Source: a virus
Lineage: Duplodnaviria; Caudoviricetes
Reading direction: 5' to 3' (one strand)
Virus record (IMG/VR): IMGVR_UViG_3300032280_000788
Coordinates: 1-63,300 of that record
DNA length: 63,300 nt
Shown here: positions 35,656 through 63,300 of the stretch, in pieces
Layout of the letters: each line of letters starts with the position of its first letter
Position numbering within the stretch: position 1 is the stretch's first letter
Notes under the pieces: model-generated
What the model was told of the DNA's origin: nothing
The model's input: the letters and a program-made list of their open reading frames with translations, nothing else
Databases searched by the model: none
Program-made: the position numbers and the translations under genes

Positions 35656-35730
35656 TGGAGCCCCTTGACGGAGTCGAACCATCATATCAAAATTACAAAT
35701 TTCGTGTAATAACCGTTATACTAAAGGGGC
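35656..35730 (-). tRNA. tRNA-Thr(UGU)
   Basis: Acceptor GCCCCTT/AAGGGGC + T + CCA; anticodon arm CGAAA-TTTGTAA-TTTTG; T-arm GATGG-TTCGACT-CCGTC. Confidence 0.9.
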
Positions 35731-52100: not shown

Positions 52101-55100
52101 AGGCCGAAGCAAAGGCCGAGAAGATCCTAGAAGAGAAAGGCTATATAGGTAAGCAGTTCCAGACCATGGGTCAGAAGCTCGGCTACGACGGAATCATTAT
52201 TGTGAACAACAATGGAGACGTGCTCGAGTTGGTCGCGTGGAGTCCGACATCGCTTAAGGATGGTTTCACAGACGCAAACATCGCACTTAGTCGCGCCGCG
52301 GTTAACGCTGGTGATGTAAAGTGGGATGTCGAAGGCATTGGGTCAACACCCACCCAAGCAGACATTAGTTATTTTGGTTTTGAGGTGCCGATGTTGCCGT
52401 CTGATTTTAGAAAGATGGTACCTAAAGGTGTTTCTGGCTCAGATACTAAAGAGTTTATTAAAAAGAAAATACAAGAGGGAGAAGCTATTGCGCCACCCTT
52501 CTTACGTGCGACATGGGACAAAGAACGTAAAGTATGGGTTGTTAATCCAGAAGAACACGAAGGTAGAAGCCGCACTGATGCTGCCGCTGAAATTGACCCC
52601 AGCGCACCAATGCCCGTGTCGATCATACTAAACAAAGGAATGCGAGCAAGAAGTCTTACAGATGAGATGCGTAATGCGCCTTTTGTTCTGGATAGTAATC
52701 TGGATGAAGTTGTATTTACACCAACACAAGCTGTCGCGCTTAGCAAGGCCGGGCTCGACACCGCGCCCAAGGCTTTCCGCGGCCGCATGGTCCAGCTGAC
52801 CCATTGGTCCAAGGCCACCGAGCTTAAGGAGACAGACCCAAGCGAGCACGGTAATGGTGGTGCTGGCAAAGAACTAGAGCGCCGCCGCGAGTACGGAGAC
52901 ATCTACATGCCGCGGACTTATTTCGGATACGACAAGTACCGCCGCGAGACTCAGGTTGGGGTCAACCGCTACAGCATGCTGGTTAACGGCGATACCCTGT
53001 ACGACTTGGACCGTGACCCACTAGACTTGTACCCGGACGCAGACGCCCTGCAGAAGGCTGGCTACGCTAGGTTCGATAACCGCGCTGCACTTACACTGCT
53101 CGAGAAAGCGGTTAAGGATGCAGGATTCAAGGGTTATGTTAGCACGTCTTACCAAGCCGGGGTCCTGTTCAATAAACAGAAGGTAACCAAGGTAAAGGAC
53201 GGCGACACTAGCTTGCCGCTGGCCGCACCAGCCAACATAGCCAAGAGCCCGCGCTACAGCAAGGCTCTGTATGCTATTACGAGCCCGCACGTTGAAAGCG
53301 CGTACGCGGTTAGCTTGGACGACCTGTTCATTAACAACGCCACCGGTGAATGGGACGCGGGTGGACCAGTTAGCCGCTTGTTCCGCGCCAGTGGAAACAT
53401 GGACCCTCGCTTGTTCGAGGCCGCCAAGTACCAAGAGCGTGGGTTGCGCCTTGCCAAGGCGCGGCTCAAGGATCTTACGCAAGCGTTCCAAGCCGCACTT
53501 AAGTCGGAACCAAACGCAGACTTGGACGACGTTAACTTGGCGCTCGGTAGCACAGAGCCAACCGTAGGCGCGGCGCAACGCGACGCTGCAGAAGCGGCCA
53601 AGCGCGCACGCATTGACAAGGCTAACGATGTATTTGATAGGGCCCCGGCAAACAAAGCTTACATGGACGCCGTCAATACGGCGCGTGCGAACTATAAGAC
53701 ACACCGCAGCAAACAAAAGTATACTGCAGAAGTTGAACAGGCTCGCGCTGATAGAAAAAATAGCCCAGAAATTCAGCAAAGGGACGCAGCAATTGCCGCG
53801 GCCGAGGCCCAGTACAGCAAGGATACCCAAGACGCGCGTGCACAAAACCTCGCGCCGGTACGCAAGGCGCAGCAGCAAGCACAGCTTAGGCTGGAGTTGA
53901 ACTCCCCGAAAACTGCAATTGCCATTGCCAATTTCCGCGTGGCCGTGGACAAGCTTAGCTCTGAACTTTCAGACGAGCTGGGCTCCGGTAATTCGCTTCG
54001 TGCAATTATTGACCAAAATCTTGGAGTCTATCTTACTCGCACATACCGCATCCATCAGGACGAAGGCTACGCGCAACGCGTACTGGAGGACAGCGAGTTC
54101 GCGCACCAGCGTGCGCTTGCCCGTAACTTCCTTGAGAAGAAGTGGATTGACAATACATACGAGCAGTGGCGCAAGGACGTTGCGTACGAGCCGTACACAG
54201 ACTCAGAAGTCATGTCGCTTGTGCGAGCTGAAGCGGCCTCCAAAGATGTTGGAACGCGAGAGCTCTACAAGTTTATTGACAAGCACAGCGCGACGCCAAA
54301 AGTATTTGGAAGAGCAACCAGCCGCACTGATCTTACAAGATTCATGCAGAAAGGTGAAGTGCCGCCGGAACTTCGAGTGCTGCTTGGCGAGGTACAGAAC
54401 CCAATTGAAAATGCGCTGCGCACTTACGGAAACCTCGCTCAGTTTCTTGGTACCCAGAGACTGCTCACGCAGTACACCAAGCTTGGCCTCGACAACAACT
54501 GGCTTGTAGCCGCCGAAGATGTGGAGAACGATCCAGTTAAGTACCGCGGGTATGCTCCGCTAGTAAGCACCACAGACACCAACGGCGGCGATCCACTATC
54601 CCAGTACTACGCGCAGCCCGAAGTTGTTTCTGCGTTCCAAACTATGTTCGCTCCGGCACCCGCTCCAGAAGGTAGCGATGCTAAAAAGGTTTGGGACTTT
54701 GTACAGCTTGGTGCTAGCAGAACAATTGGTGCCAGTATGGCGTTCCTTACACTAGGAAGCGCTGGCTTCTTTGTCCGCAACCTTGTGAGTATTCCAATCT
54801 TTGCGTCGGCTAACGGGTTTGTTCCTACGCCTAGCAACATTGTTACAGCGCTTAAAGGTATTAAACAAGTGTACGGCCGCGACATGGACGGACTCGGAGC
54901 CGACATGGTTATGTTGGGAATCTCTGAAGGCAGCATGGTTACACAAACTATGCGCGACTTTATCCGCGGAACAATTGACGACCCTGAGCTGATTACTAAT
55001 CAGATTGAGTCTATGCTCAAAGAGGTCGGCACCCCGGGCAACTTCCTTGCCAAGGCGTGGAAGGGCGCGAAAGTTACAGTCGATGGTCTTGCAACCCTTA

Positions 55101-56437
55101 ACGATCAAATTGATATGCTCTACAAGGCCGCTTACTGGGCGCACGAAGTTGATGTGCAGACCAAAGCTAACAAGTACAGGAGCGTTCCGCTAACACCACA
55201 GCAAATTAAGCAGGAGGCAGCGCGTGTTGTCAGGCTCACCACGCAGGGGCGCGAGCGCGTGGCTCCGATTGCTAAAGAGTTCCAACGCAGCGGGCTTGGC
55301 ATGCTGTTCAATAGCTTCTTCCGCTTCACCGCAGAAATGTTCCGCCTTCCAATCGCGACGATCCAGCTCGGAGTAGACGAAGTGAAGAGCGGAAACCCAG
55401 TGCTCGTGGCGAGGGGCCGTAACAGGCTAATTGGACTTGGCACTACTCTTTCTGTCCTTGGGTACGGTGCTCCGGCCCTGCTGAAAGAAATGTTTGAGGT
55501 CGAAGACGAGGAAGAAGAAGGTGTTCGGGCTGCTCAACCACCTTGGGCACGCGATTCCAACTTGTTCATTACATCAGACCCAGCGGAAGGAACAGTAACA
55601 ACATGGGATCTCACCTACATTAACGGATTTAGTCCGATCACAGACGCCGTCGGCCGCAGCATTCACCATGCAATCAACGGCCGCTGGGAGAAAATACCGG
55701 GGGTCATGGCTTCGTCCTTGGCAAAGAGTTTCCTGAGCCCTCAGATTGCAGTGGAGGCTTTCGCGCAGGCCGGTATGAACAGAGACGACCGCGGCGGTGC
55801 GCTGTGGTTGGAGGACGATTCATGGGGAACCAAAGTTGGCAAGACCCTGAAGCATGTGGCCAATAACGCGTTCAAGCTCCGCACCCCGTTCCAGCTCTGG
55901 AAAGCCTACGAAGCTTACACCAACGGCGGCGTCTACGACAAGGACGCACGCTTCGAGAAGGCCGCTGATCTTGTGATCAATGAGTTCAAGCCGTTCCGTA
56001 TTCATACCAATAAAACAGAACAGATGGCCAGACGCGCGTTCGGTGGTCTTAAACAACAAATGGACGCGGCCAGAGAAACTCTTGGTGAGCTTAAGAGCTA
56101 CGAGCAGCTAGACAAAAAGCGCGTGGACGAAGTTTATGATCGCTATGAAACATCGTTGATCGCGATTAACGAAAGGCTCAACAAGTACGCGGCCGGGTTC
56201 GGGAAGCTGGGAATGAGCTACGCTGAAATGGAAAGCCAAGCCGACGATGTGGGCATTAGCAAGCGTCGCTTCAAGGACGCCGTGCATTATGATCGGGTCG
56301 AAAGGTTTAAGCCTAGCGAAGACGCGTACAAGGACTACTTGCGCGTTGGCGGAGAAGAGAACGGTGCCGCGCGTGTGCAGTACCTTAACGAGGCCGTGTA
56401 CGCTAGGCCGCAGTACTTGAAATTAAACACAAAATAA
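43187..56437 (+). CDS. Giant polyvalent/internal virion protein (4416 aa)
   Basis: Uninterrupted ORF. Zincin HELGH (~47408); ADP-ribosyltransferase-like AFHGG...GSGYYVT...AKKYA...GYDGII...E (~51840-52260); LPD38-like C-terminus. Confidence 0.85.
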   Translation: MPQITKDPLGNDVELLNLTEWSDKNQKELNEDTLNQYAGYATGQFLRTGQKPEDFQDKLYSRLFQKGQQAGVFQPQDEAQTTQLFESFANKPLTDDAADLDLVSKSLLNTEPEKAARVADVYQRVKSGQPDPNLELDLEDVRKNIATPDVIQQARIGYAKERGLGFIDYPTGEPGKRDVWINTQATPDRKAVYDTLDLAQGIVDPRSAALAEEWIKTDPGRKVNRAEQRINSEIQSLLQERLSQSDPDSAFQQNMASAIEYATQSTEEFGTSVGAITKASTDRLAETKQVIVTPAAPVYAVKRVASNRVADAAIRSAYRNLKQTDPNNSLVTEFSEDQFTNAAQDYVLQRINTPTNQDDPTKNFVTLTDGTRAPLASAATLPKEKFNQAMDALGLDKQERAAASVIRTGWISANIKEITDALYDFESDEYVNFYEKNKDTYKNDVELTEAYLDQMKPDALKTFTAKTKGVGRSIPMAWGDLLFGAGAGASILVNSDAGEEFFTGLLTQNAEQEQRRGTYTKLYGSEMGLGYTLATQAAPLLADIAISRGAATLVKGGTKVAASANILARSAPVIGSTVRSAEDLMSKTAKTFIGNAIKPETKGFVSNYLKGFAVGGAEKSPAQILRAVRRDIEEKFVAGTARATQIGTGFARSAQGAYVNTSMGMRQETNPDGTPKYTEEQIKEAAITNALYSGGITALVEFGFGRVFGEGADVTAIGTANLRQIKSYSNRLTNALERGGFGGQELFDTVKQVSQEIVNKGWGDAVKQIPAEGLEEFTEEFTQNVVQNLLSDEQINFKQAFTQGLQAAVVGGVYGGAFGTTNKIGLRQADIARDTFAGTAQAIERDLMDRTVVKLQESGGSPQTIAALQDRMRVAQRRGQAISENIPVRAAKREIIDRLDATSEEPFEIPTAPAEPPAAKAPVTITRKAKKKAEELAVSEEELSLIQPSGTDKQGAPQITPNDVLAFVNRRTEQMGLDLNSLLPGPNITAPEGGFQLVGDEQADNPENRTFNDLSNRVVVIDGLRGRLRIEDEGVILDPEDGSTPFEVTPNKDLPVKDFEGFNTLLQEGAVVSPRRQAREVSEVTDGGQIVYGDTTYDLPEQPLIANVKKDDTGAVESMHMRVFNSKGLATWVYVAGDNVPKVETAYRTRGPEAVTNLASAVENAGRENTRRNIAAQTAKTKQSKQRRKDKRAKNNAPLVTDRGQRAAESAPDYRVANINKPNAPQQLVDEIRAVALQLGIDPEVFTDDAELFAMVAPDLAAGMDLETFTPQQKKQAIDNLLRNGNNPETLLEYLVSDELLPPVKRVERDSNLAALRARNSNQIRKHGIKPGADIKTVLESAARSATSKVHRQTAKELLMLGADSVPVSISYLPNNMGMAGAYLPQSNAVVINLASDNGGGALDALLHELGHAVTDRVVTAPRNDFEQQIRDRLMSLRAEYAERANAKYGNNMPPDLRYALEGRQRESEPFSELEGARELVAHFYGSARFREQLVELSPKGERNFVQKFIDLIASLFSGQPVASKQYKELAELIADLSKANQTIGANPYGRTVGRVAASRAGVNHENRVGPLFGVPNPHSRDDLEWILHQVQTLRYSDLSSEEINDIIVNQRFGMFTGENPNDTQFPEKENKEFNKKATQWLQDHGYQVIPIVGKYNRGENSFLVPGLTDQDAVDAANELVQDSVVTNTGMYFKGGMYHPRVGESINQPIGADDDFFSTLLDTNGDVTTIRVDYDFGTSLDSGIKYSKGDQQAAPVTKIARSLAAQGEFQVVEDREINKPMQFVDGRLAVNPALAEARYEAYDAEDTLDLQELDTRLAVAIGLANGSNGPDIQLSFEEVGLSPDSVIEQAAYNTLTNSDLQDLLKVKEQAKQFVASAYYHIALRNNGDNERLATAQNRVADLYRYLLRDGAGLPDAPEKFNALDISPVTMQLASRAASPAPIIRYSRAAVNIDPVQVRAQTKAGKAVGTRNPTSAKATEDGADPSNLVDLASLKRNPQAYRKNALLLLEYPIVAREFPELAKEYAEIRGAVLKEQDKAKANGIKITGAKDAAKKTLANYLGVTKAKVSGKMLEDAIENPESTFITKEQPGTIAGNKEARARNKALAEFNKNLDQIKKYEAEGAVLGTNSSKALKTYTDTLDKIAKDPEHPIAKQADEIYNTLIEVTKSNLRMLMDVFPSDIRDIANLWYDGANIIAQQFAGDNYSLEQSAAVLAVFSPQKDWFMNVELGKRTMEIWTADQEYEWDEAMSARWLMRGGEPELKENKDGTIGYAKGIKPDLDENGEHRTAENGMLLFHGWGSEKVKAKRQQAFERLQSLKGKKLKDLSTEQQAWFVRMRAETKYATSFPIVSPDGRFGTPSSSTNKKGVTKEIKLAWGTYGSIGKAIRILTAPPKTQMKVISDELGDQHKVRSFYNNIVDPQNADGHVTMDTHAIAALFWQAFSGNSREVGQNFGTANTATDSLTGVGGLYPAFAEAYRAVAAEYGMLPRQVQSITWEAVRMLFTARWKSKPENVNGVRAVWVRYQNNEITLEQAQTAVFAMATNGKDLATAVANSNDEELGLGFPSWADVTEGPAPAGVGIARSRALTQDDEAMFANSERRNTWSKAAKEFLGARVHPSEIPVIQGRYMRISDMPKALQDLATVAEVSKKLQRETDMAGNDILDIVTSPVETDTAWYDLDAAFRNKLRTEFDLRTQALDRIKKQTKGLYTDSEIITYAMNLPTVTDIEFEDTRIGIRLGVNLSIARSRAAQLDTDYLAAVEKGDTEAAQRMVDEALLDTDIIPTNLKRAFKSFWNAEGKINEAWNNPAQNAAKTRAAAKLTNQLDVQFENDMEASTRFWRNINELRRPVTYDAERNVIPLSKRFDLTKQDIRHSKATVATGQPYSTTAFHGGTYKQGVGALRPSKEGALGSGYYVTPSVDSAKKYAREGSLGAGVTGGSVSVFDVSLQNPLVFEYSQAYPANIFQALGVDPDKAEAKAEKILEEKGYIGKQFQTMGQKLGYDGIIIVNNNGDVLELVAWSPTSLKDGFTDANIALSRAAVNAGDVKWDVEGIGSTPTQADISYFGFEVPMLPSDFRKMVPKGVSGSDTKEFIKKKIQEGEAIAPPFLRATWDKERKVWVVNPEEHEGRSRTDAAAEIDPSAPMPVSIILNKGMRARSLTDEMRNAPFVLDSNLDEVVFTPTQAVALSKAGLDTAPKAFRGRMVQLTHWSKATELKETDPSEHGNGGAGKELERRREYGDIYMPRTYFGYDKYRRETQVGVNRYSMLVNGDTLYDLDRDPLDLYPDADALQKAGYARFDNRAALTLLEKAVKDAGFKGYVSTSYQAGVLFNKQKVTKVKDGDTSLPLAAPANIAKSPRYSKALYAITSPHVESAYAVSLDDLFINNATGEWDAGGPVSRLFRASGNMDPRLFEAAKYQERGLRLAKARLKDLTQAFQAALKSEPNADLDDVNLALGSTEPTVGAAQRDAAEAAKRARIDKANDVFDRAPANKAYMDAVNTARANYKTHRSKQKYTAEVEQARADRKNSPEIQQRDAAIAAAEAQYSKDTQDARAQNLAPVRKAQQQAQLRLELNSPKTAIAIANFRVAVDKLSSELSDELGSGNSLRAIIDQNLGVYLTRTYRIHQDEGYAQRVLEDSEFAHQRALARNFLEKKWIDNTYEQWRKDVAYEPYTDSEVMSLVRAEAASKDVGTRELYKFIDKHSATPKVFGRATSRTDLTRFMQKGEVPPELRVLLGEVQNPIENALRTYGNLAQFLGTQRLLTQYTKLGLDNNWLVAAEDVENDPVKYRGYAPLVSTTDTNGGDPLSQYYAQPEVVSAFQTMFAPAPAPEGSDAKKVWDFVQLGASRTIGASMAFLTLGSAGFFVRNLVSIPIFASANGFVPTPSNIVTALKGIKQVYGRDMDGLGADMVMLGISEGSMVTQTMRDFIRGTIDDPELITNQIESMLKEVGTPGNFLAKAWKGAKVTVDGLATLNDQIDMLYKAAYWAHEVDVQTKANKYRSVPLTPQQIKQEAARVVRLTTQGRERVAPIAKEFQRSGLGMLFNSFFRFTAEMFRLPIATIQLGVDEVKSGNPVLVARGRNRLIGLGTTLSVLGYGAPALLKEMFEVEDEEEEGVRAAQPPWARDSNLFITSDPAEGTVTTWDLTYINGFSPITDAVGRSIHHAINGRWEKIPGVMASSLAKSFLSPQIAVEAFAQAGMNRDDRGGALWLEDDSWGTKVGKTLKHVANNAFKLRTPFQLWKAYEAYTNGGVYDKDARFEKAADLVINEFKPFRIHTNKTEQMARRAFGGLKQQMDAARETLGELKSYEQLDKKRVDEVYDRYETSLIAINERLNKYAAGFGKLGMSYAEMESQADDVGISKRRFKDAVHYDRVERFKPSEDAYKDYLRVGGEENGAARVQYLNEAVYARPQYLKLNTK

Positions 56438-56442
56438 AACAA

Positions 56443-56474
56443 AAAAGCCCCGAGCTTAATTGCTCGGGGCTTTT
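56443..56474. terminator. Bidirectional intrinsic terminator
   Basis: AAAAGCCCCGAGC-TTAATT-GCTCGGGGCTTTT between convergent operons. Confidence 0.9.
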
Positions 56475-56477
56475 GGT

Positions 56478-56741
56478 TTAACGGCTTTCAAGTGTGGCCT
56501 GAAGCCATTCGTTCATTTCTGTAGCTAGCTCGGGCATATCAGGATACAGTGACCCGAACAGCTGGTGGATCTTTGATGAAACCTCTGGGTCAACCGCGGC
56601 GCTTGCGCTACGCATTGTTCCAAACTTTGTTTTGTAGAACACATAAAGGAATCCTGAGTCCTTGTGCAACTCTACGCAAACGCGGTCGTGGTTGGCTCGA
56701 TCAAAGAATAAATGACTAACAATACAAGTATCACGAATCAT
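56478..56741 (-). CDS. Hypothetical protein
   Basis: 87 aa; last gene before the terminator. Confidence 0.6.
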   Translation of the reverse strand: MIRDTCIVSHLFFDRANHDRVCVELHKDSGFLYVFYKTKFGTMRSASAAVDPEVSSKIHQLFGSLYPDMPELATEMNEWLQATLESR

Positions 56742-56826
56742 GGCAGTGACATAATGATGTCGTAAATAGTAGCGGTCACCCCGAACAGGGTGGCCGCTAC
56801 TGTTATATACAACAGGTGCATATTTT

Positions 56827-57072
56827 TTATGCTAGTTGTGGCTCTGGTGCAAAAAAGCGTTGCACCACTTGGCGGACAATGCCGCTATGCTTACCGCGGA
56901 CTTGCTCGAGGAAACCAGCGGCTTCTTCGGCGTCGTCCAAGGTCTTACTGCACACCCCGTTGCGGAGGAGGATTCCCCCGTTGCGGAGAACACAATAGGT
57001 TCCGTTGCGGCTATTCTCGTGGTCAGCGCGCTCTTGCGCGTTCAGTCTTGCGATGGTATTAATGTTTTGCAT
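56827..57072 (-). CDS. Hypothetical protein
   Basis: 81-aa ORF with an A/C-rich leader. Confidence 0.65.
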   Translation of the reverse strand: MQNINTIARLNAQERADHENSRNGTYCVLRNGGILLRNGVCSKTLDDAEEAAGFLEQVRGKHSGIVRQVVQRFFAPEPQLA

Positions 57073-57098
57073 AATATTAGTTGTAGTCGTTTTTGGGG

Positions 57099-57257
57099 TT
57101 AGTGGGGGGGAGTTGGTACAGAGTAGTCTTCCGCGACAAGGTTGTCCACAAAAATAAATTCTGGGTCTTGAATATGCAGAAGATCTACGAGGTGGTCAAT
57201 GCTGGGGACCTGCTGGAGGTCCCCTGTTATGGTGGTGGTTAGTGTGTTGCCGATCAT
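57099..57257 (-). CDS. Hypothetical protein (52 aa; not in the ORF track)
   Basis: MIGNTLTTTITGDLQQV...; ATGA overlap. Confidence 0.5.
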   Translation of the reverse strand: MIGNTLTTTITGDLQQVPSIDHLVDLLHIQDPEFIFVDNLVAEDYSVPTPPH

Positions 57258-57490
57258 GGGATTCCTCTGGTGTTGATTTTACCACTCAAGTACGCGAGTT
57301 CCAGCGCTAAATTTAGCGCGTCGGTTTCGTTAATTGTGTGGCAATCTATTCCGTACTTTTCACACAACGGCATATCCAGTGTTTCGGTGTACGCTAGCCA
57401 GTTACGAATGGTCCTAACTTCGGCGGCTCCGTCGGGGCTATGCACGACCCGAACCGCGGGGTTCAGCGTGGACGCATAAATAGTTTTCAC
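57254..57490 (-). CDS. Hypothetical protein
   Basis: 78 aa; GTGA overlap. Confidence 0.6.
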   Translation of the reverse strand: MKTIYASTLNPAVRVVHSPDGAAEVRTIRNWLAYTETLDMPLCEKYGIDCHTINETDALNLALELAYLSGKINTRGIP

Positions 57491-57579
57491 AATGATGCTG
57501 GGGGGCTGGGGTCGTTTGGATCATTGCACATTAAAACTATTACAAGCACGATTAGTATGACAAACAAACTTGTGATCAT
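57487..57579 (-). CDS. Small single-TM peptide (30 aa)
   Basis: MITSLFVILIVLVIVLMCNDPNDPSPPASL; overlaps neighbours at both ends. Confidence 0.55.
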   Translation of the reverse strand: MITSLFVILIVLVIVLMCNDPNDPSPPASL

Positions 57580-57710
57580 GATTTTTTGAATAGTAATAGG
57601 TCTCTTCCAATCACCAAAGGAGTTGGTCTGCTTAAGGTTTTGCGCCCATTTTTTATTAGGTAAATGAAAGCGGCCTCTTGCGCCTTTAGTCTGCGTTCTG
57701 TGTATGTCAT
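57576..57710 (-). CDS. Small basic protein (44 aa; not in the ORF track)
   Basis: MTYTERRLKAQEAAFIYLIKNG...; ATGA overlaps at both ends. Confidence 0.5.
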   Translation of the reverse strand: MTYTERRLKAQEAAFIYLIKNGRKTLSRPTPLVIGRDLLLFKKS

Positions 57711-58282
57711 TTTTTGTAGCGGTTAGGGGTTTTCTTTTTGAACAACTCGAGCAGTTGTGGGACCAGCTCCCACTCCACGGCCAGCACGCAGTGATCGTGC
57801 AGGTCAAGGAACGCGCAGTGCTTAAGGTTATTCTGTTGCAACCAGAACGCCACTTGGTCCGATACCTCCGGCGACGACGCATCGTGGCTCCAAGGGAGCG
57901 TTACGCTCTTCTGGTACCGCGGCAAGGTCACCTTGACTCGGGTTGGGTAGTTATCTGTTGCGGGTAGCGTGCGGCAAACGACCGCGACTAGGTGTGTTAT
58001 GTTGTTATTCACTTTCTTTGTTTCTATTTTTTGTTTAACGTCCCAGACCGCGGGCTCGACTGGTTTCGAGACTCTGGATTCTGGAGACAGGATTTGTGTG
58101 TCGTTCGGCAGTTCGTTGTTGTACGCCTCGAGCGCGCTCGCGTCGCTGGACGCGCGCACCAACTTTCCGGTGGGGAAACACTGGTAGATTGAATTGGTTG
58201 GCTCCCCAGTAACAGGGCACCAACCATCCACATTCGATTTGCCGACAAGGATTGCTGTGGTTGCTTGTATTTTTGCTTTCAT
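57707..58282 (-). CDS. Hypothetical early protein
   Basis: Contains an LPATDNYPTRVK motif; start taken at ATG 58282. Confidence 0.65.
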   Translation of the reverse strand: MKAKIQATTAILVGKSNVDGWCPVTGEPTNSIYQCFPTGKLVRASSDASALEAYNNELPNDTQILSPESRVSKPVEPAVWDVKQKIETKKVNNNITHLVAVVCRTLPATDNYPTRVKVTLPRYQKSVTLPWSHDASSPEVSDQVAFWLQQNNLKHCAFLDLHDHCVLAVEWELVPQLLELFKKKTPNRYKK

Positions 58283-58284
58283 AA

Positions 58285-58926
58285 TTACCAAACATTTAGT
58301 GCTTTGAGCGCCGCGGCGTCGCGATCAAGAAAGGCTGGCCAAGCATGCTCGGCAAGTTTATTCAGCAAGTCTTTGGCGTTGCCGTTGGCGAACAGGACTG
58401 CGGTGGGCTGGACCTTCCACGGGTTGGGCTGTAGTCCGTTCCACGCGGCGTTGGCCAGCGGGTCCACGCTTAAGACTGGCGGCTTGGATAGCAGGCGGCC
58501 AGCGTGCTTGCCGTTCGAGGCCAGCGAGCGCCACACAGCCTCGATCTCGGAGTCGGTAAGCTGTGCGCGTTGGGCAATGGCTTTGACTATTTGACCGATC
58601 TGATCGCGGTCCACGCGAGCGGGTCGTTGCGGGGCGGGCGGGGCTTCCAGCGTTACCGGATCAGGAGCCGCTGGCGCGCTTTGAATGCGGGCTTGGACCC
58701 GTTCGACTCCGAACTGCTGGAGCACCTCGCGCAGGGCTTGCTCGGCCGCGGCCTTGGTCGGGCCCTTGGCGATTACCTGCCCGCAACGGGGGCTCGTAAC
58801 TGCCCAGCCCTTACCCGTTACCGAGCGGTGCAAGACCGCCGTGATTGGGGCGTCCAAAAGTAGGCCCCTGACCTTATAGAATCGGCCTTGTGAATAGGCT
58901 ACTGGTGTTTCTGTTTCTGTGTTCAT
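58285..58926 (-). CDS. Hypothetical early protein
   Basis: 213 aa ending DRDAAALKALNVW. Confidence 0.7.
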   Translation of the reverse strand: MNTETETPVAYSQGRFYKVRGLLLDAPITAVLHRSVTGKGWAVTSPRCGQVIAKGPTKAAAEQALREVLQQFGVERVQARIQSAPAAPDPVTLEAPPAPQRPARVDRDQIGQIVKAIAQRAQLTDSEIEAVWRSLASNGKHAGRLLSKPPVLSVDPLANAAWNGLQPNPWKVQPTAVLFANGNAKDLLNKLAEHAWPAFLDRDAAALKALNVW

Positions 58927-58946
58927 TGTTTTCTATTGGTTTGTGT

Positions 58947-59195
58947 TTAGACCACGAGGTCGATTCCGGCCAAGTGTAGCGATCGGAACTTTTGCTCGCC
59001 GCGGTCATCAATATCCCACGCGCGGACCACCGCGTAGCGCACGCCTTTCTTGCTAAACGCAACGCGGTTGACTTGGTCGATTTTGAATACTCGGACGCCG
59101 GTATTTGTCTGCCGCGAATCGAGCGCGATGTACCGAACAGTGCGGCCTACGAGCTCGCTTATGATTCTTTCAGTGCTTTTTGTTGTTGTTGTCAT
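58947..59195 (-). CDS. Hypothetical early protein (SH3/WYL-like beta fold?)
   Basis: ATG follows the conserved leader of hammerhead A; ends WDIDDRGEQKFRSLHL. Confidence 0.7.
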   Translation of the reverse strand: MTTTTKSTERIISELVGRTVRYIALDSRQTNTGVRVFKIDQVNRVAFSKKGVRYAVVRAWDIDDRGEQKFRSLHLAGIDLVV

Positions 59196-59221
59196 TGTTG
59201 TTGGAGCGGATTGGTTGGCTT

Positions 59222-59283
59222 CCGCGACCGCCCCGCCGAAGCGGTTTGGTTTCGACCCCAAGCCAACGGGTCTCATCAGGCGG
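59222..59283 (-). ncRNA. Type I hammerhead ribozyme A
   Basis: CCGC-CUGAUGA-GACCC/GGGUC-GAAAC-stem III (UUCG)-GUC^GCGG. Confidence 0.9.
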
Positions 59284-59430
59284 TTAACCGCGGTACTCTT
59301 CGTACGCGTCCTTGAGCTTATGCTTTATTAGATCAAACCGAACATCCTCAGTGTCACCAGCGACCAACTCAAGTAGGTCTCTCGCGATAGTGTAGATTTC
59401 CAGTACATTTTCGTCTTTCGTTTTTTCCAT
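59284..59430 (-). CDS. Small acidic protein (48 aa)
   Basis: MEKTKDENVLEIY...EEYRG, between hammerheads B and A. Confidence 0.65.
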   Translation of the reverse strand: MEKTKDENVLEIYTIARDLLELVAGDTEDVRFDLIKHKLKDAYEEYRG

Positions 59431-59455
59431 ATGTTTAGAGCGGATTGGTTGGCTT

Positions 59456-59517
59456 CCGCGACCGCCCCGCCGAAGCGGTTTGGTTTCGGCCGTTGCCACA
59501 CGGCCATCATCAGGCGG
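59456..59517 (-). ncRNA. Type I hammerhead ribozyme B
   Basis: CCGC-CUGAUGA-U-GGCCGU/ACGGCC-GAAAC-stem III-GUC^GCGG. Confidence 0.9.
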
Positions 59518-59809
59518 TTGGGTAACTTATGCCCTCGGGCAAGTCGTCCACAAGTATGATGCGGACTCCGGTGGCCTGCTCGAGCGTCTGGACAAGGCCG
59601 CGGATGCTGGTGCATGTTTCGCGAACATTGACCCAGTGCTCGGCGGTATCGCGGCCCCAGAAGGTGCGCTCGACGACCTCGTCACCATTGCGTATGCGCT
59701 GGTGCGCGAAGTCCCTGTGGTTGCCGCTGTATGGGGACTGCAGGAACAGGTCATAGGTTGGCGTGAAAGCGTCCTCGAGGGACAGCACATGTGATGTTTC
59801 TGTTTTCAT
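59510..59809 (-). CDS. Hypothetical early protein
   Basis: 99 aa; its stop is the UGA of the hammerhead B core. Confidence 0.7.
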   Translation of the reverse strand: MKTETSHVLSLEDAFTPTYDLFLQSPYSGNHRDFAHQRIRNGDEVVERTFWGRDTAEHWVNVRETCTSIRGLVQTLEQATGVRIILVDDLPEGISYPTA

Positions 59810-59812
59810 TGT

Positions 59813-60016
59813 TTAGTAGTGGGTTAAGTGGGTGATGTGGCTCTTGTAGAAGCCGCCTTGGTTGTACCATTGCAGGGTGCACTCGCCGTTGCTGTAGATC
59901 TCGACCAGTCGCCCGAAGCGGACCGGATAGAAGACCCCCTCAACGCGTTCTTTGGGCGGCGGCGGTAGAATCCTATAGGATTCTCCAACGCATAGTTTTA
60001 TAGGGATGTTTGTCAT
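59813..60016 (-). CDS. Hypothetical early protein (67 aa)
   Basis: ATG follows the leader of hammerhead C. Confidence 0.65.
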   Translation of the reverse strand: MTNIPIKLCVGESYRILPPPPKERVEGVFYPVRFGRLVEIYSNGECTLQWYNQGGFYKSHITHLTHY

Positions 60017-60042
60017 TTTTGTTGGTGCGGATTGGTTGGCTT

Positions 60043-60104
60043 CCGCGACCGCCCCGCCGAAGCGGTTTGGTTTCGGCCGTTGCCACACGGCCATCATCAG
60101 GCGG
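60043..60104 (-). ncRNA. Type I hammerhead ribozyme C
   Basis: Identical to copy B over the core and stems. Confidence 0.9.
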
Positions 60105-60107
60105 GGT

Positions 60108-60341
60108 TCAGCGCACCTTGAGGCTGTCAAGGTGCTCGAGCGTCTCTGGGTCGAAGTGCAACACATGGTTGCGGAACTCGGGGCCCAGCTTGTACGCGCC
60201 GTGGTGCGCTTGCTCTTCTTGCTCGGCCGTGAGGCCGGACACTTTCCACCCGGGAGGCAAGCCGCGCGGGTGAACAACGATTCGCGGGCCTTGCCCGCAG
60301 TAGTCTTGTAGCAGGTATGCTTTCATGGTTTCAGGATTCAA
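60108..60341 (-). CDS. Hypothetical early protein
   Basis: 77 aa from TTG 60341; ATG 60326 is an alternative start. Confidence 0.6.
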   Translation of the reverse strand: MNPETMKAYLLQDYCGQGPRIVVHPRGLPPGWKVSGLTAEQEEQAHHGAYKLGPEFRNHVLHFDPETLEHLDSLKVR

Positions 60342-60532
60342 GGTTCAGGGTTCGGATTGGGTGGTAGCTCGTCGTACGGGTCGTGCGGTAGCTCGTCGTA
60401 GTCTGGGTCGTGCGGTAGCTCGTCGTAGTCTGGGTCGTGCGTGTAGCTTGGCTGGCAGGCCGGACAACTGGTTTTGCAGTCCGGCCACCAACGGCTACCG
60501 CACAAGGTGCAGGCGAATGGTGCAGTTTTCAT
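60338..60532 (-). CDS. Zinc-finger protein with three HDP(D)YDELP repeats (64 aa)
   Basis: CTLCG...CPAC followed by 27-bp tandem repeats. Confidence 0.6.
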   Translation of the reverse strand: MKTAPFACTLCGSRWWPDCKTSCPACQPSYTHDPDYDELPHDPDYDELPHDPYDELPPNPNPEP

Positions 60533-60636
60533 CAGTGCAACAGGTGGCGGAGTAGGATTGCGGCCGCGATAAAAGCGGCCCCGCAAAGGGCGGAAATGCA
60601 AACGCCCAGCCAAATTGGTGGTTCAGGTATCTTCAT
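60532..60636 (-). CDS. Small single-TM peptide (34 aa; not in the ORF track)
   Basis: MKIPEPPIWLGVCISALCGAAFIAAAILLRHLLH; start/stop overlaps on both sides. Confidence 0.6.
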   Translation of the reverse strand: MKIPEPPIWLGVCISALCGAAFIAAAILLRHLLH

Positions 60637-60965
60637 TGTTCGGTGGTGGTTGATGGGCAGGCTCGCCCACGCCAGTTGTTGTAGTGCTCGTCGGTGGCCG
60701 CGTCAAGCGCGGGGTGGACTGTGTAGTCCGCCACCAGCTCTGCGGGTTCGTTCCCAAGGACGATGTACGCAGTGACGCGCGAGCCGTCGGTGTGGGCGAG
60801 CCGCACATGGCTTTCGTCGGTGGCGGTTATTTCGGCCACCGCAATCGCGATGGTGGAGGTGCTGACCCAGCCGTCGCCGTTGTTCACGGCGAGGGGCTCG
60901 AGCCCGTGTTTTTCAGCCGTGCGCAGGAAGTCGCGCACGGGGGTTGACCAGTTGTATTTTTTCAT
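60633..60965 (-). CDS. Hypothetical early protein (110 aa)
   Basis: ATG follows the leader of hammerhead D; VLGNEPAELVADY motif. Confidence 0.75.
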   Translation of the reverse strand: MKKYNWSTPVRDFLRTAEKHGLEPLAVNNGDGWVSTSTIAIAVAEITATDESHVRLAHTDGSRVTAYIVLGNEPAELVADYTVHPALDAATDEHYNNWRGRACPSTTTEQ

Positions 60966-60991
60966 TGTTTTTGGAGCGGATTGGTTGGCTT

Positions 60992-61043
60992 CCGCGACCC
61001 CTTGCGGGGTTTCGGCCGTTGCCACACGGCCATCATCAGGCGG
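60992..61043 (-). ncRNA. Type I hammerhead ribozyme D
   Basis: Same core; minimal stem III AC-CCC-GCAA-GGG-GU with a GNRA loop. Confidence 0.92.
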
Positions 61044-61125
61044 GGGGGGTGCGCGCCTCGCGGCCTGCGCCTGCTCTTACTCCTCCTCGGGTTGGGCGCG
61101 TGGCGCGTTCGATTCCTGGGTTCAT
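61036..61125 (-). CDS. 29-aa peptide with an RGGVRAGAGR motif (not in the ORF track)
   Basis: ATGA overlap upstream; its stop is the UGA of hammerhead D. Confidence 0.45.
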   Translation of the reverse strand: MNPGIERATRPTRGGVRAGAGREARTPPA

Positions 61126-61361
61126 GCTGTTGCGAGTTTGCTGAGTTTTGCCACGGCATCACGGATGCCGCCGTAGCCACTGTACGATTTCCCGCCGATT
61201 GGATCGGCACGGTCGATTGCATACCAGTCGCAGACGCTGGTGTATTTGCGGAGTCCGCATCCGGCGCGTTCGCTGATTGTCTTGCGCGTCACTTGGATGT
61301 TGTAGGAGTCCGTGATGTAGACCGCTGTGCCTTTGAAGCTGCTGATTTTGGTTGCTTTCAT
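61122..61361 (-). CDS. Hypothetical early protein (79 aa)
   Basis: ATG follows the leader of hammerhead E. Confidence 0.65.
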   Translation of the reverse strand: MKATKISSFKGTAVYITDSYNIQVTRKTISERAGCGLRKYTSVCDWYAIDRADPIGGKSYSGYGGIRDAVAKLSKLATA

Positions 61362-61387
61362 TGTTGTTGGAGCGGATTGGTTGGCTT

Positions 61388-61454
61388 CCGCGACGACCAG
61401 CACCCCGAAGGGGCTGGTCGTTTCGGCCGTTGCCACACGGCCATCATCAGGCGG
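61388..61454 (-). ncRNA. Type I hammerhead ribozyme E
   Basis: Same core; stem III GACCAGC-CCC-UUCG-GGG-U-GCUGGUC. Confidence 0.92.
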
Positions 61455-61866
61455 CTTGGCGCAGGCGGCGCGCGATGTGGCTCGCGCTGGTGCCTGCTAT
61501 GCTTTCGACCAGTCTGCCGCTGTCGCGGGTGGCGGTCCAATATACACCGGAGCCCTGCCCAGTCGCTCCGGTGAACCGGAAACGCCAGCTAGGAAACAGC
61601 GCGGTGAGAGCCGCGTGCTCTGCCCACTCAACGCTGTGGCCCACGGCAATATTCTCTATCCATGCGTCAGCGGCTCGTTGTGAGCGGCTACAGGCCCAGC
61701 GCAGGCCGCTTTGGTAAGCGTCAGCGTTTATGCTGGGGTGCAGGTACCAAGTGGACCTATGGGCGGCGGAGTGGATGACTAGGCCGCCGCGGCTCTTAAG
61801 AGCGGAGCAGGGTCTGTACGGGTGATTGGTTGGTTCCTTACGATTTTGGAATTGTGTTTGGCTCAT
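61447..61866 (-). CDS. Hypothetical early protein (139 aa)
   Basis: ATG follows the leader of hammerhead F; stop lies in the hammerhead E core. Confidence 0.65.
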   Translation of the reverse strand: MSQTQFQNRKEPTNHPYRPCSALKSRGGLVIHSAAHRSTWYLHPSINADAYQSGLRWACSRSQRAADAWIENIAVGHSVEWAEHAALTALFPSWRFRFTGATGQGSGVYWTATRDSGRLVESIAGTSASHIARRLRQAA

Positions 61867-61892
61867 TATTGTTGGAGCGGATTGGTTGGCTT

Positions 61893-61959
61893 CCGCGACG
61901 ACCAGCACCCCGAAGGGGCTGGCCGTTTCGGCCGTTGCCACACGGCCATCATCAGGCGG
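61893..61959 (-). ncRNA. Type I hammerhead ribozyme F
   Basis: As copy E with an A-U to G-U change in stem III. Confidence 0.92.
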
Positions 61960-62116
61960 CGTTGAATCTGTTAACAATGTTCTGAAGTTCGGCCCTGTAG
62001 TCGTCGCCACATTCGGACCCGAAGGATTCAAGGTCGTCAATGAGTCCACTCGCGAGGGCTAGCAATTCGGCCACGCAATTGGTGGCCACATCAATGGTTG
62101 TGTCAATTTTGTTCAT
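61952..62116 (-). CDS. Small acidic protein (54 aa)
   Basis: ATG follows the leader of hammerhead G; stop lies in the hammerhead F core. Confidence 0.65.
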   Translation of the reverse strand: MNKIDTTIDVATNCVAELLALASGLIDDLESFGSECGDDYRAELQNIVNRFNAA

Positions 62117-62142
62117 TATTGTTGGTGCGGATTGGTTGGCTT

Positions 62143-62208
62143 CCGCGACGACCAGCACCCCGAAGAGGCTGGCCGTTTCGGCCCTTGCTACGGGGCCTCG
62201 TCAGGCGG
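62143..62208 (-). ncRNA. Type I hammerhead ribozyme G
   Basis: CCGC-CUGACGA-GGCCC/GGGCC-GAAAC-stem III-GUC^GCGG. Confidence 0.92.
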
Positions 62209-62620
62209 GTTGTACAGCGGCAAGGAACGCCTCGTCGCTGGCGCCATTGGCTCGGGCGGCATCGAGCGCAACCTTGAGTTCGGCCGCGGCCTGCTCGAAT
62301 GTGACGAACAGGCTGTGCTTGTACTCGTATCCCTGCGGGTTTGGCCCGTCCAAGCGGCCGCGGCTCGAGGCCTTTTCGAGGACCGCGATCGAGTCCTGCT
62401 GAAGCACCACCGCGAGGTGGTGCGCGTGCCATCCGTCGGGGGCAAACCCTACCACAACAAGCGTGGGTTGCGGCTGGCCTTCCCACTCGCTTTCGTGCAG
62501 GATCGAGGCGTGAGCCTCAAAGCCCGTTGCGGCGAGCGCGGCGGCGGCGTCTTTACGGATGATTCTCTCGCCAGTCTTTTCGACCAGCAAGCCGATATTT
62601 AACTCGATTTCCTTTTTCAT
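62201..62620 (-). CDS. First early gene; possible SAM lyase-like protein (139 aa)
   Basis: LNIGL...W.G...PTLVV...LA..L.QDSIAV resembles phage SAM lyases; stop lies in the hammerhead G core. Confidence 0.55.
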   Translation of the reverse strand: MKKEIELNIGLLVEKTGERIIRKDAAAALAATGFEAHASILHESEWEGQPQPTLVVVGFAPDGWHAHHLAVVLQQDSIAVLEKASSRGRLDGPNPQGYEYKHSLFVTFEQAAAELKVALDAARANGASDEAFLAAVQPA

Positions 62621-62625
62621 TTTTT

Positions 62626-62712
62626 TGGTGCCCTCTGCCTTGGCCAGACTTGGGACTGGCACCGCGCGGCTTGCACCATTGCAGGCTTGTTCGCGGTGGT
62701 GGCATTGCACCA
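62626..62712 (-). ncRNA. Type P1 twister ribozyme
   Basis: P1 UGGUG/CACCA; C^AA; P2 UGCC/GGCA; T2 AC/GU; P3 CACCGCG/CGCGGUG; P4 CCAG/CUGG; L4 UCCCAAGU; 3' GAGGG (T1). Confidence 0.88.
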
Positions 62713-63169
62713 TGGCCCGTTACACTGCGGGCCAAAGATCGGGGACTGGGAAAGAACTGGGACCACCGCTTGGAACTCGCCGCCGGACCCCGTGCTGGGG
62801 CGGCGGCCGATCCGCTTTTGTGGGTGACCTTGCGGCCAACGAAAATCAATGTAGGGCAGGATCCGTTTTTGTCACCAACTTTTTTCGGAAAAGTTTGCAG
62901 GGTAGCACAAAACCCCTTGTTTTATAGCTTATTGACCCCGAAAATATTTTTCAAGAAAATGTCAAAAAGATGTTTTGTATACGCTTTTTTGCGAACTACT
63001 AGGAGTTTAGTATTTGAGCGAAATGTCGTTTTGTATACACCGCCAGAGCAAAGCAGGATGGTTGCATTTTGCGCAACTTTCCTGCGCCTAGCAACCAGCA
63101 ACCAGCGCCAAGACTACACTCGCCAAGTGTAGCGTTTCGGGAGCGTGTACCACCAGCCAACCAGCCCGG

Positions 63170-63300
63170 GCCGATCCACCTGCCGATCCACCTGCCGATC
63201 CACCTGCCGATCCACCTGCCGATCCACCTGCCGATCCACCTGCCGATCCACCTGCCGATCCACCTGCCGATCCACCTGCCGATCCACCTGCCGATCCACC
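63170..63300. repeat. 12-bp tandem repeat GCCGATCCACCT, ~11 copies (right end)
   Basis: Perfect copies running to the end of the window. Confidence 0.98.

Follow-up and report, generated by a model that had tools for sequence, protein, structure and literature searches.

A cluster of seven predicted hammerhead ribozymes in the virus record IMGVR_UViG_3300032280_000788 (Duplodnaviria; Caudoviricetes) is followed, copy by copy, by an invariant leader that can pair in two incompatible ways. The window analysed here is the complete 63.3-kb virus record (63,300 nucleotides). On the basis of their sequence the seven elements are classed as type I hammerheads, predicted to be self-cleaving; they lie on the minus strand between 59.2 and 62.2 kb, each in an intergenic gap between small genes. 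The first bases downstream of each predicted cut can pair upstream, as the 3' strand of stem I in a ribozyme held together by a pseudoknot between loop II and the leader, or downstream, with a return strand that closes a hairpin flush with the new 5' end. Both pairings are possible in all of the copies (the pseudoknot being imperfect in copy G), and they are mutually exclusive at stem I. We consider the chances slightly better than even that the element works as a pseudoknotted type I hammerhead whose product then refolds through the return strand into a flush 5' hairpin. We infer that, after cleavage, the hairpin would win over stem I, release the product, block religation and stabilise the 5' end.

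Seven predicted type I hammerheads and their leaders

Each element reads CCGC, CUGANGA, the stem II hairpin, GAAAC, the stem III hairpin, GUC, the 20-mer GCGGAAGCCAACCAAUCCGC, nine or ten A/C-rich bases and AUG. An earlier sequence-only reading of this DNA had claimed that every hammerhead is followed by GCGGA, UCCGC, 9-10 A/C-rich nucleotides (nt) and ATG, and this holds in 7/7 copies. The features lie where that reading placed them, except that all are on the minus strand and that the first ATG has its A at 59195 and not at 59196. The elements and the open reading frames (ORFs) that follow them, with lengths in amino acids (aa), are listed from the highest coordinate down.

62147 to 62208, minus strand: hammerhead G, type I, CCGC-CUGACGA-stem II (loop CGUAGCAA)-GAAAC-stem III-GUC; predicted cleavage 62147/62146; stop of the upstream ORF is the core UGA
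62117 to 62146, minus strand: leader G, 20-nt tail/hairpin at 62127-62146 and 10-nt A/C-rich spacer; ATG at 62116, 54-aa ORF
61897 to 61959, minus strand: hammerhead F, type I, extra U after A9, loop II UGUGGCAA; predicted cleavage 61897/61896; stop of the upstream ORF is the core UGA
61867 to 61896, minus strand: leader F, hairpin at 61877-61896 and spacer; ATG at 61866, 139-aa ORF
61392 to 61454, minus strand: hammerhead E, type I, extra U; predicted cleavage 61392/61391; stop of the upstream ORF is the core UGA
61362 to 61391, minus strand: leader E, hairpin at 61372-61391 and spacer; ATG at 61361, 79-aa ORF
60996 to 61043, minus strand: hammerhead D, type I, extra U, short stem III CCCCGCAAGGGG; predicted cleavage 60996/60995
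60966 to 60995, minus strand: leader D, hairpin at 60976-60995 and spacer; ATG at 60965, 110-aa ORF
60047 to 60104, minus strand: hammerhead C, type I, extra U; predicted cleavage 60047/60046; upstream stop UGA 3 nt before CCGC
60017 to 60046, minus strand: leader C, hairpin at 60027-60046 and spacer; ATG at 60016, 67-aa ORF
59460 to 59517, minus strand: hammerhead B, type I, extra U; loop II UGGC (about 59495-59498) pairs with tail GCCA (59450-59453); upstream stop is the core UGA
59431 to 59459, minus strand: leader B, hairpin at 59440-59459 and 9-nt spacer; ATG at 59430, 48-aa ORF
59226 to 59283, minus strand: hammerhead A, type I, loop II GUUGGCUUG, without the extra U; stop of the upstream ORF is a UAA directly abutting CCGC
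59196 to 59225, minus strand: leader A, hairpin at 59206-59225 and 10-nt spacer; ATG at 59195, 82-aa ORF

All seven copies carry CUGAUGA (CUGACGA in copy G, position 7 being free) followed by GAAA and UC, matching the core consensus C3 U4 G5 A6 N7 G8 A9 ... G12 A13 A14 A15.1 ... U16.1 H17 (PMC3088659). Loops close stems II and III, whereas the 5' and 3' ends lie at the open stem I. Stem I comprises four base pairs (bp), CCGC/GCGG, in every copy, the base 5' of CCGC being A, C or G and never U. Stem II is 5-6 bp long and occurs in three versions (GACCC/GGGUC, GGCCG/CGGCC and GGCCC/GGGCC), and stem III in three unrelated versions among the seven copies. Stems II and III thus vary between copies with compensating changes while the tail stays constant, which implies that these helices are preserved by compensation.

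The type I assignment is made on core and helices and not on an Rfam model, because the score of Hammerhead_1 (RF00163) falls short: on the genome this model finds copy A alone, at 16.2 bits (E 0.019) and under its 34-bit gathering cut-off, a result that we count among the reservations weighed below. An Rfam scan of the whole window at gathering thresholds returned tRNA only and no hammerhead, and no hammerhead was found in a permissive scan of 58.0-63.3 kb with E up to 10.

In copies B-F a single additional U separates A9 from the first pair of stem II (for example at 59506 and 60093). There is a viroid precedent for an extra nucleotide after A9. A pattern with the extra U matches at least 118 loci in viral contigs and at least 120 loci in bacterial genomes, the latter spanning, among the matches listed, Clostridia, cyanobacteria, alphaproteobacteria, Paenibacillus, Bacteroidales and others. 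Read as position 10.1, the extra U amounts to a mispair by the core, and the filter applied in PMC3088659 rejected such mispairs; a term look-up in PMC2632901 turned up nothing relevant to an extra nucleotide after A9. A mirror hairpin, GCGG-UUAA-CCGC (59283-59294, minus strand), lies upstream of copy A and of no other copy; it spans the upstream stop and might sequester the 5' strand of stem I.

Loop II and the return strand as partners of the tail

The 20-mer GCGGAAGCCAACCAATCCGC occurs in seven minus-strand copies with 0 mismatches, at 59206, 59440, 60027, 60976, 61372, 61877 and 62127, where shuffled sequence gives an expectation of 0.02 and 0/100 shuffles reach seven; the whole 63.3-kb record holds no extra copies. 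Six copies have their AUG 30 nt from the cut site and copy B has it at 29 nt, an interval made up of the 20 nt of the tail and the 9-10 A/C-rich nt. In the lineage to which the window belongs (with the relatives L049, L421, L440 and L448), the identical 20-mer follows 18/20 hammerheads, a count in which the two copies of L448 duplicate two of those of L049. One of the two deviating tails has a 1-nt insertion in the hairpin loop, and the other, in L421, has a different loop with the GCGGA/UCCGC stem kept. Of the at least 119 loci matched in an exact 14-mer scan, three held hammerhead-linked matches, nine in total, and most of the matches were due to chance, and the return strand TCCGC is present in 9/9 hammerhead-linked lineage matches to a pattern that leaves that strand free.

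Such uniformity can be explained in another way, which we regard as unlikely but deserving of real weight: the pseudoknot alone is functional, and UCCGC and its hairpin are by-products. The identity of the 20-mer would then reflect copying between repeats (concerted evolution) or a recent duplication of a ribozyme-plus-leader cassette, and CCGC-like words after the tail in other phages would derive from the pseudoknot strand. Because the tail is nearly invariant and the lineage therefore offers no covariation, the lineage alone cannot separate selection from copying, and concerted evolution of the repeats could give rise to the identity. Copying does not homogenise everything, however, since stems II and III and loop II vary between copies over a constant tail, and the tail of L421 retains GCGGA/UCCGC around an altered loop.

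The pairing of the tail with loop II is the better established of its two interactions. Tail bases 7-10 (GCCA) complement UGGC of loop II over 4 bp in copies B-F; in copy A the match of loop II and tail, GUUGGCUU/AAGCCAAC, extends to up to 8 bp; and in copy G UAGC faces GCCA with one A.C mismatch. At least four Watson-Crick (WC) pairs thus connect loop II to the stem I side in 6/7 copies, and three of four in copy G. The complementarity of AAGCCAA to loop II that the sequence-only reading had described, full in copy A, through UGGC in B-F and imperfect through UAGC in G, is therefore confirmed.

Relatives were gathered by three pattern scans and parsed with our own descriptor, and all counts on relatives given here are among the matches listed. 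At least four contiguous WC pairs link loop II and tail in 98/169 distinct combinations, against a mean of 48.1 and a maximum of 64 in 200 permutations of the tails, and at least five in 44/169, against a permutation mean of 14.1. The paired words are diverse (UGGC/GCCA, GGUU/AACC, GGAUA/UAUCC, GAGAC/GUCUC and GUGGUG/CACCAC). We also aligned 148 low-redundancy representatives (alignment A2). The three hammerhead stems are paired in 93.6%, 89.5% and 99.8% of cases in A2, figures that reflect the selection of its rows for having these stems. In the register of the window 46.8% of the pseudoknot cells pair, which 5/500 shuffles match; shifted by one column 69.7% pair, with a covariation of 0.235, and other slides give 27-36%. 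The shift of one column arises because stem I is 5 bp in most relatives. The covariation across relatives indicates that the pairing of tail and loop II is a real, selected tertiary pseudoknot, in keeping with the tertiary contact proposed from the sequence alone. It is an already known kind of hammerhead tertiary contact (PMC3088659): Perreault 2011 predicted pseudoknots that join the stem I side to stem II for each of the three types of hammerhead, at a frequency of about 40%; one, in a type II hammerhead, was proven by mutation and compensation, and another was supported by the loss of activity of a truncated human hammerhead (PMC3088659).

The same tail contains the return strand. Nucleotides 1-5 of the 3' product (GCGGA) and nucleotides 16-20 (UCCGC) can close a hairpin of 5 bp around a 10-nt loop; its free energy is predicted at -5.3 kcal/mol, and it is the predicted minimum-energy fold of the 3' product in 7/7 copies; in this fold pairing starts at nt 1, making the hairpin 5'-terminal. 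Hairpin and stem I exclude each other because both use one GCGG strand. In fold computations that leave the pseudoknot and the tertiary core out of the energy, the hairpin-forced fold lies 1.2-6.3 kcal/mol below the stem-I-forced fold in 6/7 copies, and in copy F the stem-I-forced fold is lower by 1.3 kcal/mol; in copies A-C the lower fold also pairs the 5' CCGCC with stem III, a non-hammerhead pairing. By these models the two states are plausibly near each other in energy.

The flush hairpin in relatives

The test applied to relatives takes the first four bases of the 3' product and seeks a downstream WC partner word across a loop of at least 3 nt. Tests free of alignment were used because the loop length of 3-21 nt puts the return strands in different columns of A2; a column count anchored on the Shine-Dalgarno (SD) sequence was abandoned, with 18 rows of mixed geometry. 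A flush hairpin of at least 4 WC bp is present in 83/154 unique viral tails, against 7.6% when tails are given the heads of other classes and 5.2% over all 256 4-mers. It is present in 22/62 tails of an independent set of genome contigs against 7.3%, in a set that includes likely false hammerheads in coding sequence, and in 69/148 representatives against 11.3% with foreign stem I sequences, the rows L205 and L271 having been dropped as coding false positives. Outside the GCGG class the hairpin is found in 19/60, where permutations average 8.4 and peak at 18 (0/2000 reach 19). As a mirror control, we looked for a competitor upstream of stem I, which occurs in 6/190 sequences as against 91/190 with one downstream.

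The return strand follows the class of stem I. In GCGG-class tails CCGC is the top 4-mer at +8 to +32, in 57% of 88, compared with 7% in other classes and 5% further downstream; in GUGG-class tails the commonest 4-mer is CCAC, in 75% of 12 compared with 20% elsewhere. With nt 1-4 forced to pair downstream, tails reach -7.13 kcal/mol with their own heads and -5.57 kcal/mol with composition-matched foreign heads (n=190); the Wilcoxon p of 8e-20 for this comparison overstates the case because the sequences are related. The clearest single instance is the pair L044 and L138, which match almost throughout a stretch of more than 50 nt and lie before the same downstream gene, one with GCGG..CCGC and the other with GUGG..CCAC. 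The upstream strand, ACCCGC, is constant, so that stem I of L138 acquires a G.U pair while the hairpin stays WC, a compensatory change. After removal of 15/216 tails (the CGUCGGC family), nine pairs with similar tails and different heads could be compared: the hairpin is present in both members of five, in one member of one and in neither member of three, and in two of these last three the strict test overlooks offset or G.U-containing hairpins.

A cyanobacterial clade (L206, L214, L239, L193, L197 and L185) combines a 4-bp stem I with a flush hairpin of 6-9 bp, and the word complementary to loop II sits in the hairpin loop; the architecture is that of the window, in other sequences. L279 and L286 also belong to this hairpin clade, and the pairs of the clade are partly G.U or interrupted by bulges.

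These comparisons support, with caveats, the view that the flush hairpin recurs in relatives with matching sequence changes. The competition with stem I that the sequence-only reading had proposed thus stands to the extent that the hairpin excludes stem I and recurs with such changes, and is qualified by strand overlap and by frequency. Several of the same results argue against the hairpin as a by-product of the pseudoknot: the clean compensatory pair L044/L138 with its unaltered upstream strand, the restriction of CCGC as top word to GCGG-class tails and to +8 to +32, the mirror control, and the cyanobacterial hairpins, which reach well past the pseudoknot strand.

A number of observations weigh against our preferred reading. 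The first five of them favour the by-product explanation. About half of the representatives (79/148) have no flush hairpin. The commonest loop is of 4 nt (30/69 hairpins), and there the return strand overlaps the pseudoknot strand, so that one pairing may account for the other. With the return strand at least 6 nt away the signal is weaker, at 34/148 against 9.2%, and outside the GCGG class loops of at least 6 nt are found in 8/60 against 5.0, a level reached by 113/1000 permutations and hence non-significant. In one family with a constant ...ACCCGUCGGC tail, CCCGU is present under either a GCGG or an ACGG stem I, so that the ACGG-class signal is in part coincidental. To these is added the near-invariance of the lineage tail discussed above. 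The relatives themselves were found with patterns that fix stem I or the start of stem II, and they form an incomplete and biased sample of related sequences. The hairpin does not exceed stem I in length in most of them, the commonest difference being -1 bp; a hairpin stronger than stem I is thus specific to the lineage of the window and the cyanobacterial clade. A downstream competitor can inhibit ribozyme assembly in vivo, and by analogy the hairpin may cost ribozyme activity (PMC2817708). Finally, our reading draws on sequence and predicted folds, and cleavage, the hairpin and its effects are predictions; a look-up of sequencing runs that contain this stretch listed no RNA run.

One large group of hammerheads from gut and Clostridia contexts (L036, L088, L093, L095, L110, L126, L130, L137, L173, L215, L218, L230, L238, L242 and L296) has no start codon next to it. 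The tail of this family holds a conserved motif of about 45 nt, ...ACCCGUCGGC...GGGG...CGCCGCCCC, and then turns U-rich; complementary words of the motif interleave, resembling an H-type pseudoknot or a terminator.

The relative length of hairpin and stem I also bears on when the hairpin would act. It could be an OFF state that forms before cleavage, with cleavage partial, timed or gated, perhaps by ribosomes: terminating ribosomes of the upstream gene would cover CCGC and the core, and initiating ribosomes of the downstream gene would cover the return strand. This we hold to be distinctly unlikely, though several features suit it. The hairpin of the lineage (5 WC bp) exceeds stem I (4 bp; 5 bp with G.U in L421), as does the 6-9-bp hairpin of the cyanobacterial clade with its 4-bp stem I, and adjacent helices swap rapidly in vivo, so that a downstream competitor can act before cleavage (PMC2817708). 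The gene arrangement suits it as well. In the window the core UGA is the upstream stop in copies B, E, F and G (59510-59512, 61447-61449, 61952-61954 and 62201-62203, minus strand), as it is in 48/180 relatives, and the return strand lies 10-14 nt before the AUG. Nevertheless, an ORF that enters the core in one of the three frames must stop at UGA, so that the overlap may simply reflect tight packing; no dependence on a ligand, a protein or a ribosome is apparent in the sequence; and a hairpin no longer than stem I, as in most relatives, is a better fit to a role after cleavage. In its fullest form this explanation describes a ribosome-gated switch, in which traffic on both genes would set the balance between cutting and the hairpin fold and so couple processing of the early transcript to translation, a proposal that we think quite improbable; that the same logic would extend to many phage type I hammerheads with a return strand has, in our view, an equally low probability.

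Operon context, proposed mechanism and known systems

The hammerheads belong to a block of co-oriented small genes that is presumably a single transcription unit, with these further features.

56478 to 62875, minus strand: co-oriented block of about 17 small ORFs (34-213 aa), with the twister candidate and the seven hammerheads
62627 to 62711, minus strand: candidate type-P1 twister ribozyme at the operon head, its 3' end 6 nt before the ATG of the first gene (62620)
56443 to 56474, minus strand: terminator-like hairpin, 13-bp stem and T-run, at the operon 3' end, where it meets the end of a 4416-aa plus-strand ORF

The twister candidate scores 44.5 bits with full model coverage (1-68; E 1.2e-7 for 5.3 kb and 3.3e-10 for the genome), below the RF03160 gathering score of 67.2 bits, and is a candidate only. 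Its cut site, placed near the 5' end of the element by the model alignment, would leave that message also starting with folded RNA. A sigma-70 promoter scan stayed at chance level (5 found against 3.3 expected, among them a promoter-like match at 62875-62848). No function could be assigned to any of the 16 operon proteins tested against PHROGs and Pfam; the single weak PHROGs family, of unknown function, and a sub-threshold Pfam match to LAL_C2 (19.6 bits against a cut-off of 29.4) were treated as uninformative.

Elsewhere in the record, the 4416-aa ORF (43187-56437, plus strand), which converges on the hammerhead operon at the hairpin 56443-56474, has an HExxH-like motif (LLHELGHAV). A 12-nt tandem repeat of about 11-12 copies at each end (1-141 and 63170-63300) accounts for the 'direct terminal repeat' of the record. 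A 27-nt tandem repeat of 3.3 copies (60363-60448, minus strand) lies within a 64-aa ORF and encodes repeated ...YDELPHDPD... units. ARAGORN calls a tRNA-Ser(tga) at 58646-58723 on the plus strand, antisense to the 213-aa ORF, which the Rfam tRNA model leaves unreported at gathering and which is probably a false call; a tRNA-Thr (35656-35730, minus strand) is called by both. A tblastn search with the 678-aa protein (2531-4567) for relatives among cultured phages gave no match.

The absence of an SD sequence from the leaders, to which the sequence-only reading had drawn attention, is real but not specific to them. An SD-like motif precedes only 6/74 crude gene calls genome-wide and leaders are A-rich, so that its absence is a property of the whole genome and is informative on the host and not on the leader. 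SD-less, A-rich leaders are typical of Bacteroidota. In relatives an ordinary AGGAG follows the return strand in 61/123.

The small genes between the ribozymes partly differ between the window and L049, L440, L448 and L421, while the ribozyme-leader modules are common to all, and the repeats may serve as recombination linkers for gene cassettes. It is possible in principle, but to our minds very improbable, that the 20-mer is chiefly a recognition site, either such a DNA-level linker or a hairpin operator for a phage or host RNA-binding protein that would co-regulate the translation or decay of seven early messages. The sharing of modules between loci whose genes differ (the window as against L049 and L440), the fixed spacing to seven start codons, and the conservation of the loop AGCCAACCAA in 18/20 lineage copies, beyond what the hairpin and a 4-bp pseudoknot need, are all in its favour. 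A changed loop is tolerated in L421, however; no candidate binding protein is identifiable among the 16 operon proteins tested; and the loops of other lineages differ and track loop II, which implies that the general constraint is pairing and not a fixed sequence.

In the mechanism we favour, refolding of the product through the return strand, each hammerhead would occupy the space that separates two small genes of a single phage operon. Position in relatives favours this reading: the cleavage site falls 20-50 nt before an ORF start in 109/173, against 30% for random positions, and in 133/180 the upstream ORF has its stop either at the UGA of the core (48) or in the 15 nt that precede the core (another 85). 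When the ribozyme is actively folded, GCGG and the upstream CCGC would form the 4-bp stem I, and the next tail bases (GCCA; AAGCCAA in copy A) would pair with loop II and hold stems I and II side by side, an arrangement by which hammerheads are known to attain full speed. The RNA would cut itself after GUC, the ribozyme remaining as the folded 3' end of the upstream message and the downstream message starting with GCGG. The return strand UCCGC would then take GCGGA from the upstream CCGC and build a 5-bp hairpin from the first base of the cleaved message. Refolding of this kind would detach the product from the ribozyme and render the cut effectively irreversible; the flush hairpin would cap the 5'-hydroxyl end and shield it from 5'-end-dependent nucleases, and the A-rich, SD-less start region, 9-10 nt past the hairpin, would stay open. 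In effect, the return strand would give a type I hammerhead the flush hairpin that types II and III obtain from their loop-closed stem I.

Parts of this arrangement have counterparts elsewhere. In RiboJ-type insulators a hammerhead sets the 5' end of a message and a hairpin lies just downstream, before the translation start, so that the module proposed for the window would work like a natural counterpart; the RiboJ hairpin is a separate added helix that involves no refolding of a stem I strand, and RiboJ is an engineered part and not a natural family. Leader stem-loops of the ompA type stabilise bacterial mRNA through a hairpin at or near the 5' end, before an open translation start; their 5' ends arise where transcription starts and bear a triphosphate, whereas the end in the window would be a 5' hydroxyl made by a ribozyme.

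The bacterial and phage hammerheads of Perreault 2011 share with the window the conserved core, the three stems, a WC pseudoknot in place of loop-loop contacts, and the occurrence of multiple ribozymes in prophages and phages flanking single genes or short gene blocks, for which processing of long transcripts to gene-length mRNAs was proposed (PMC3088659). Unlike what we see in the window, the accessible text of that paper mentions neither a strand further downstream with which the 3' strand of stem I could pair anew nor a leader conserved as far as the start codon, and we found no prior description of a return-strand flush hairpin in the open-access literature or in PMC3088659, supplements excluded. 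Clusters of phage hammerheads and their pseudoknot are therefore already known, and the return-strand hairpin is what is new here within the open-access literature. The 3' products of type II and III hammerheads do start with a flush 5' hairpin, the loop-closed stem I, whose loop often pairs with the stem II side, just as the hairpin loop of the window holds bases complementary to loop II (PMC3088659, PMC10085705). Since no CUGAUGA follows the return strand in the window, the catalytic fold must use the upstream CCGC, as in type I and unlike types II and III.

The glmS ribozyme is likewise a self-cleaving RNA in a bacterial 5' leader that creates a new 5' end on the coding fragment (PMC10810187, PMC6765202). 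It belongs to another ribozyme class, and nothing in the window implies a metabolite cofactor. Its exposed end leads to decay of the 3' fragment by RNase J1 and turns the gene off (PMC10810187), the opposite design to an end that can fold into a flush hairpin. This makes the sequence-only claim that 5'-hydroxyl ends are protective per se too broad; a 5' end made by a ribozyme can be a liability, and a flush hairpin would have a clear use. A precedent for the competition itself is the work of Mahen et al. 2010, in which a strand complementary to a ribozyme helix gave mutually exclusive folds, the outcome being set by the order of synthesis and relative stability (PMC2817708). That was a designed hairpin-ribozyme test in yeast, whereas the competitor in the window is natural, conserved and downstream.

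A 2019 review described the roles of self-cleaving ribozymes in bacteria as "largely elusive" (PMC6765202). Should the hairpin be functionless, the locus simply adds a clean new case to the pseudoknotted hammerhead clusters already known from phages. Our comparisons suggest that many phage type I hammerheads, in Clostridia-, cyanobacteria- and Bacteroidota-like contexts, share a fourth, alternative helix, whose proposed job is to cap an exposed 5'-hydroxyl end with a hairpin, a short and constant distance ahead of the start codon. If this is true, phage hammerheads would be natural "insulator" parts that finish one message with a ribozyme at its 3' end and begin the next with a 5' hairpin; this would explain their placement exactly between stop and start codons, and would make them ready-made parts for hosts that lack SD sequences.

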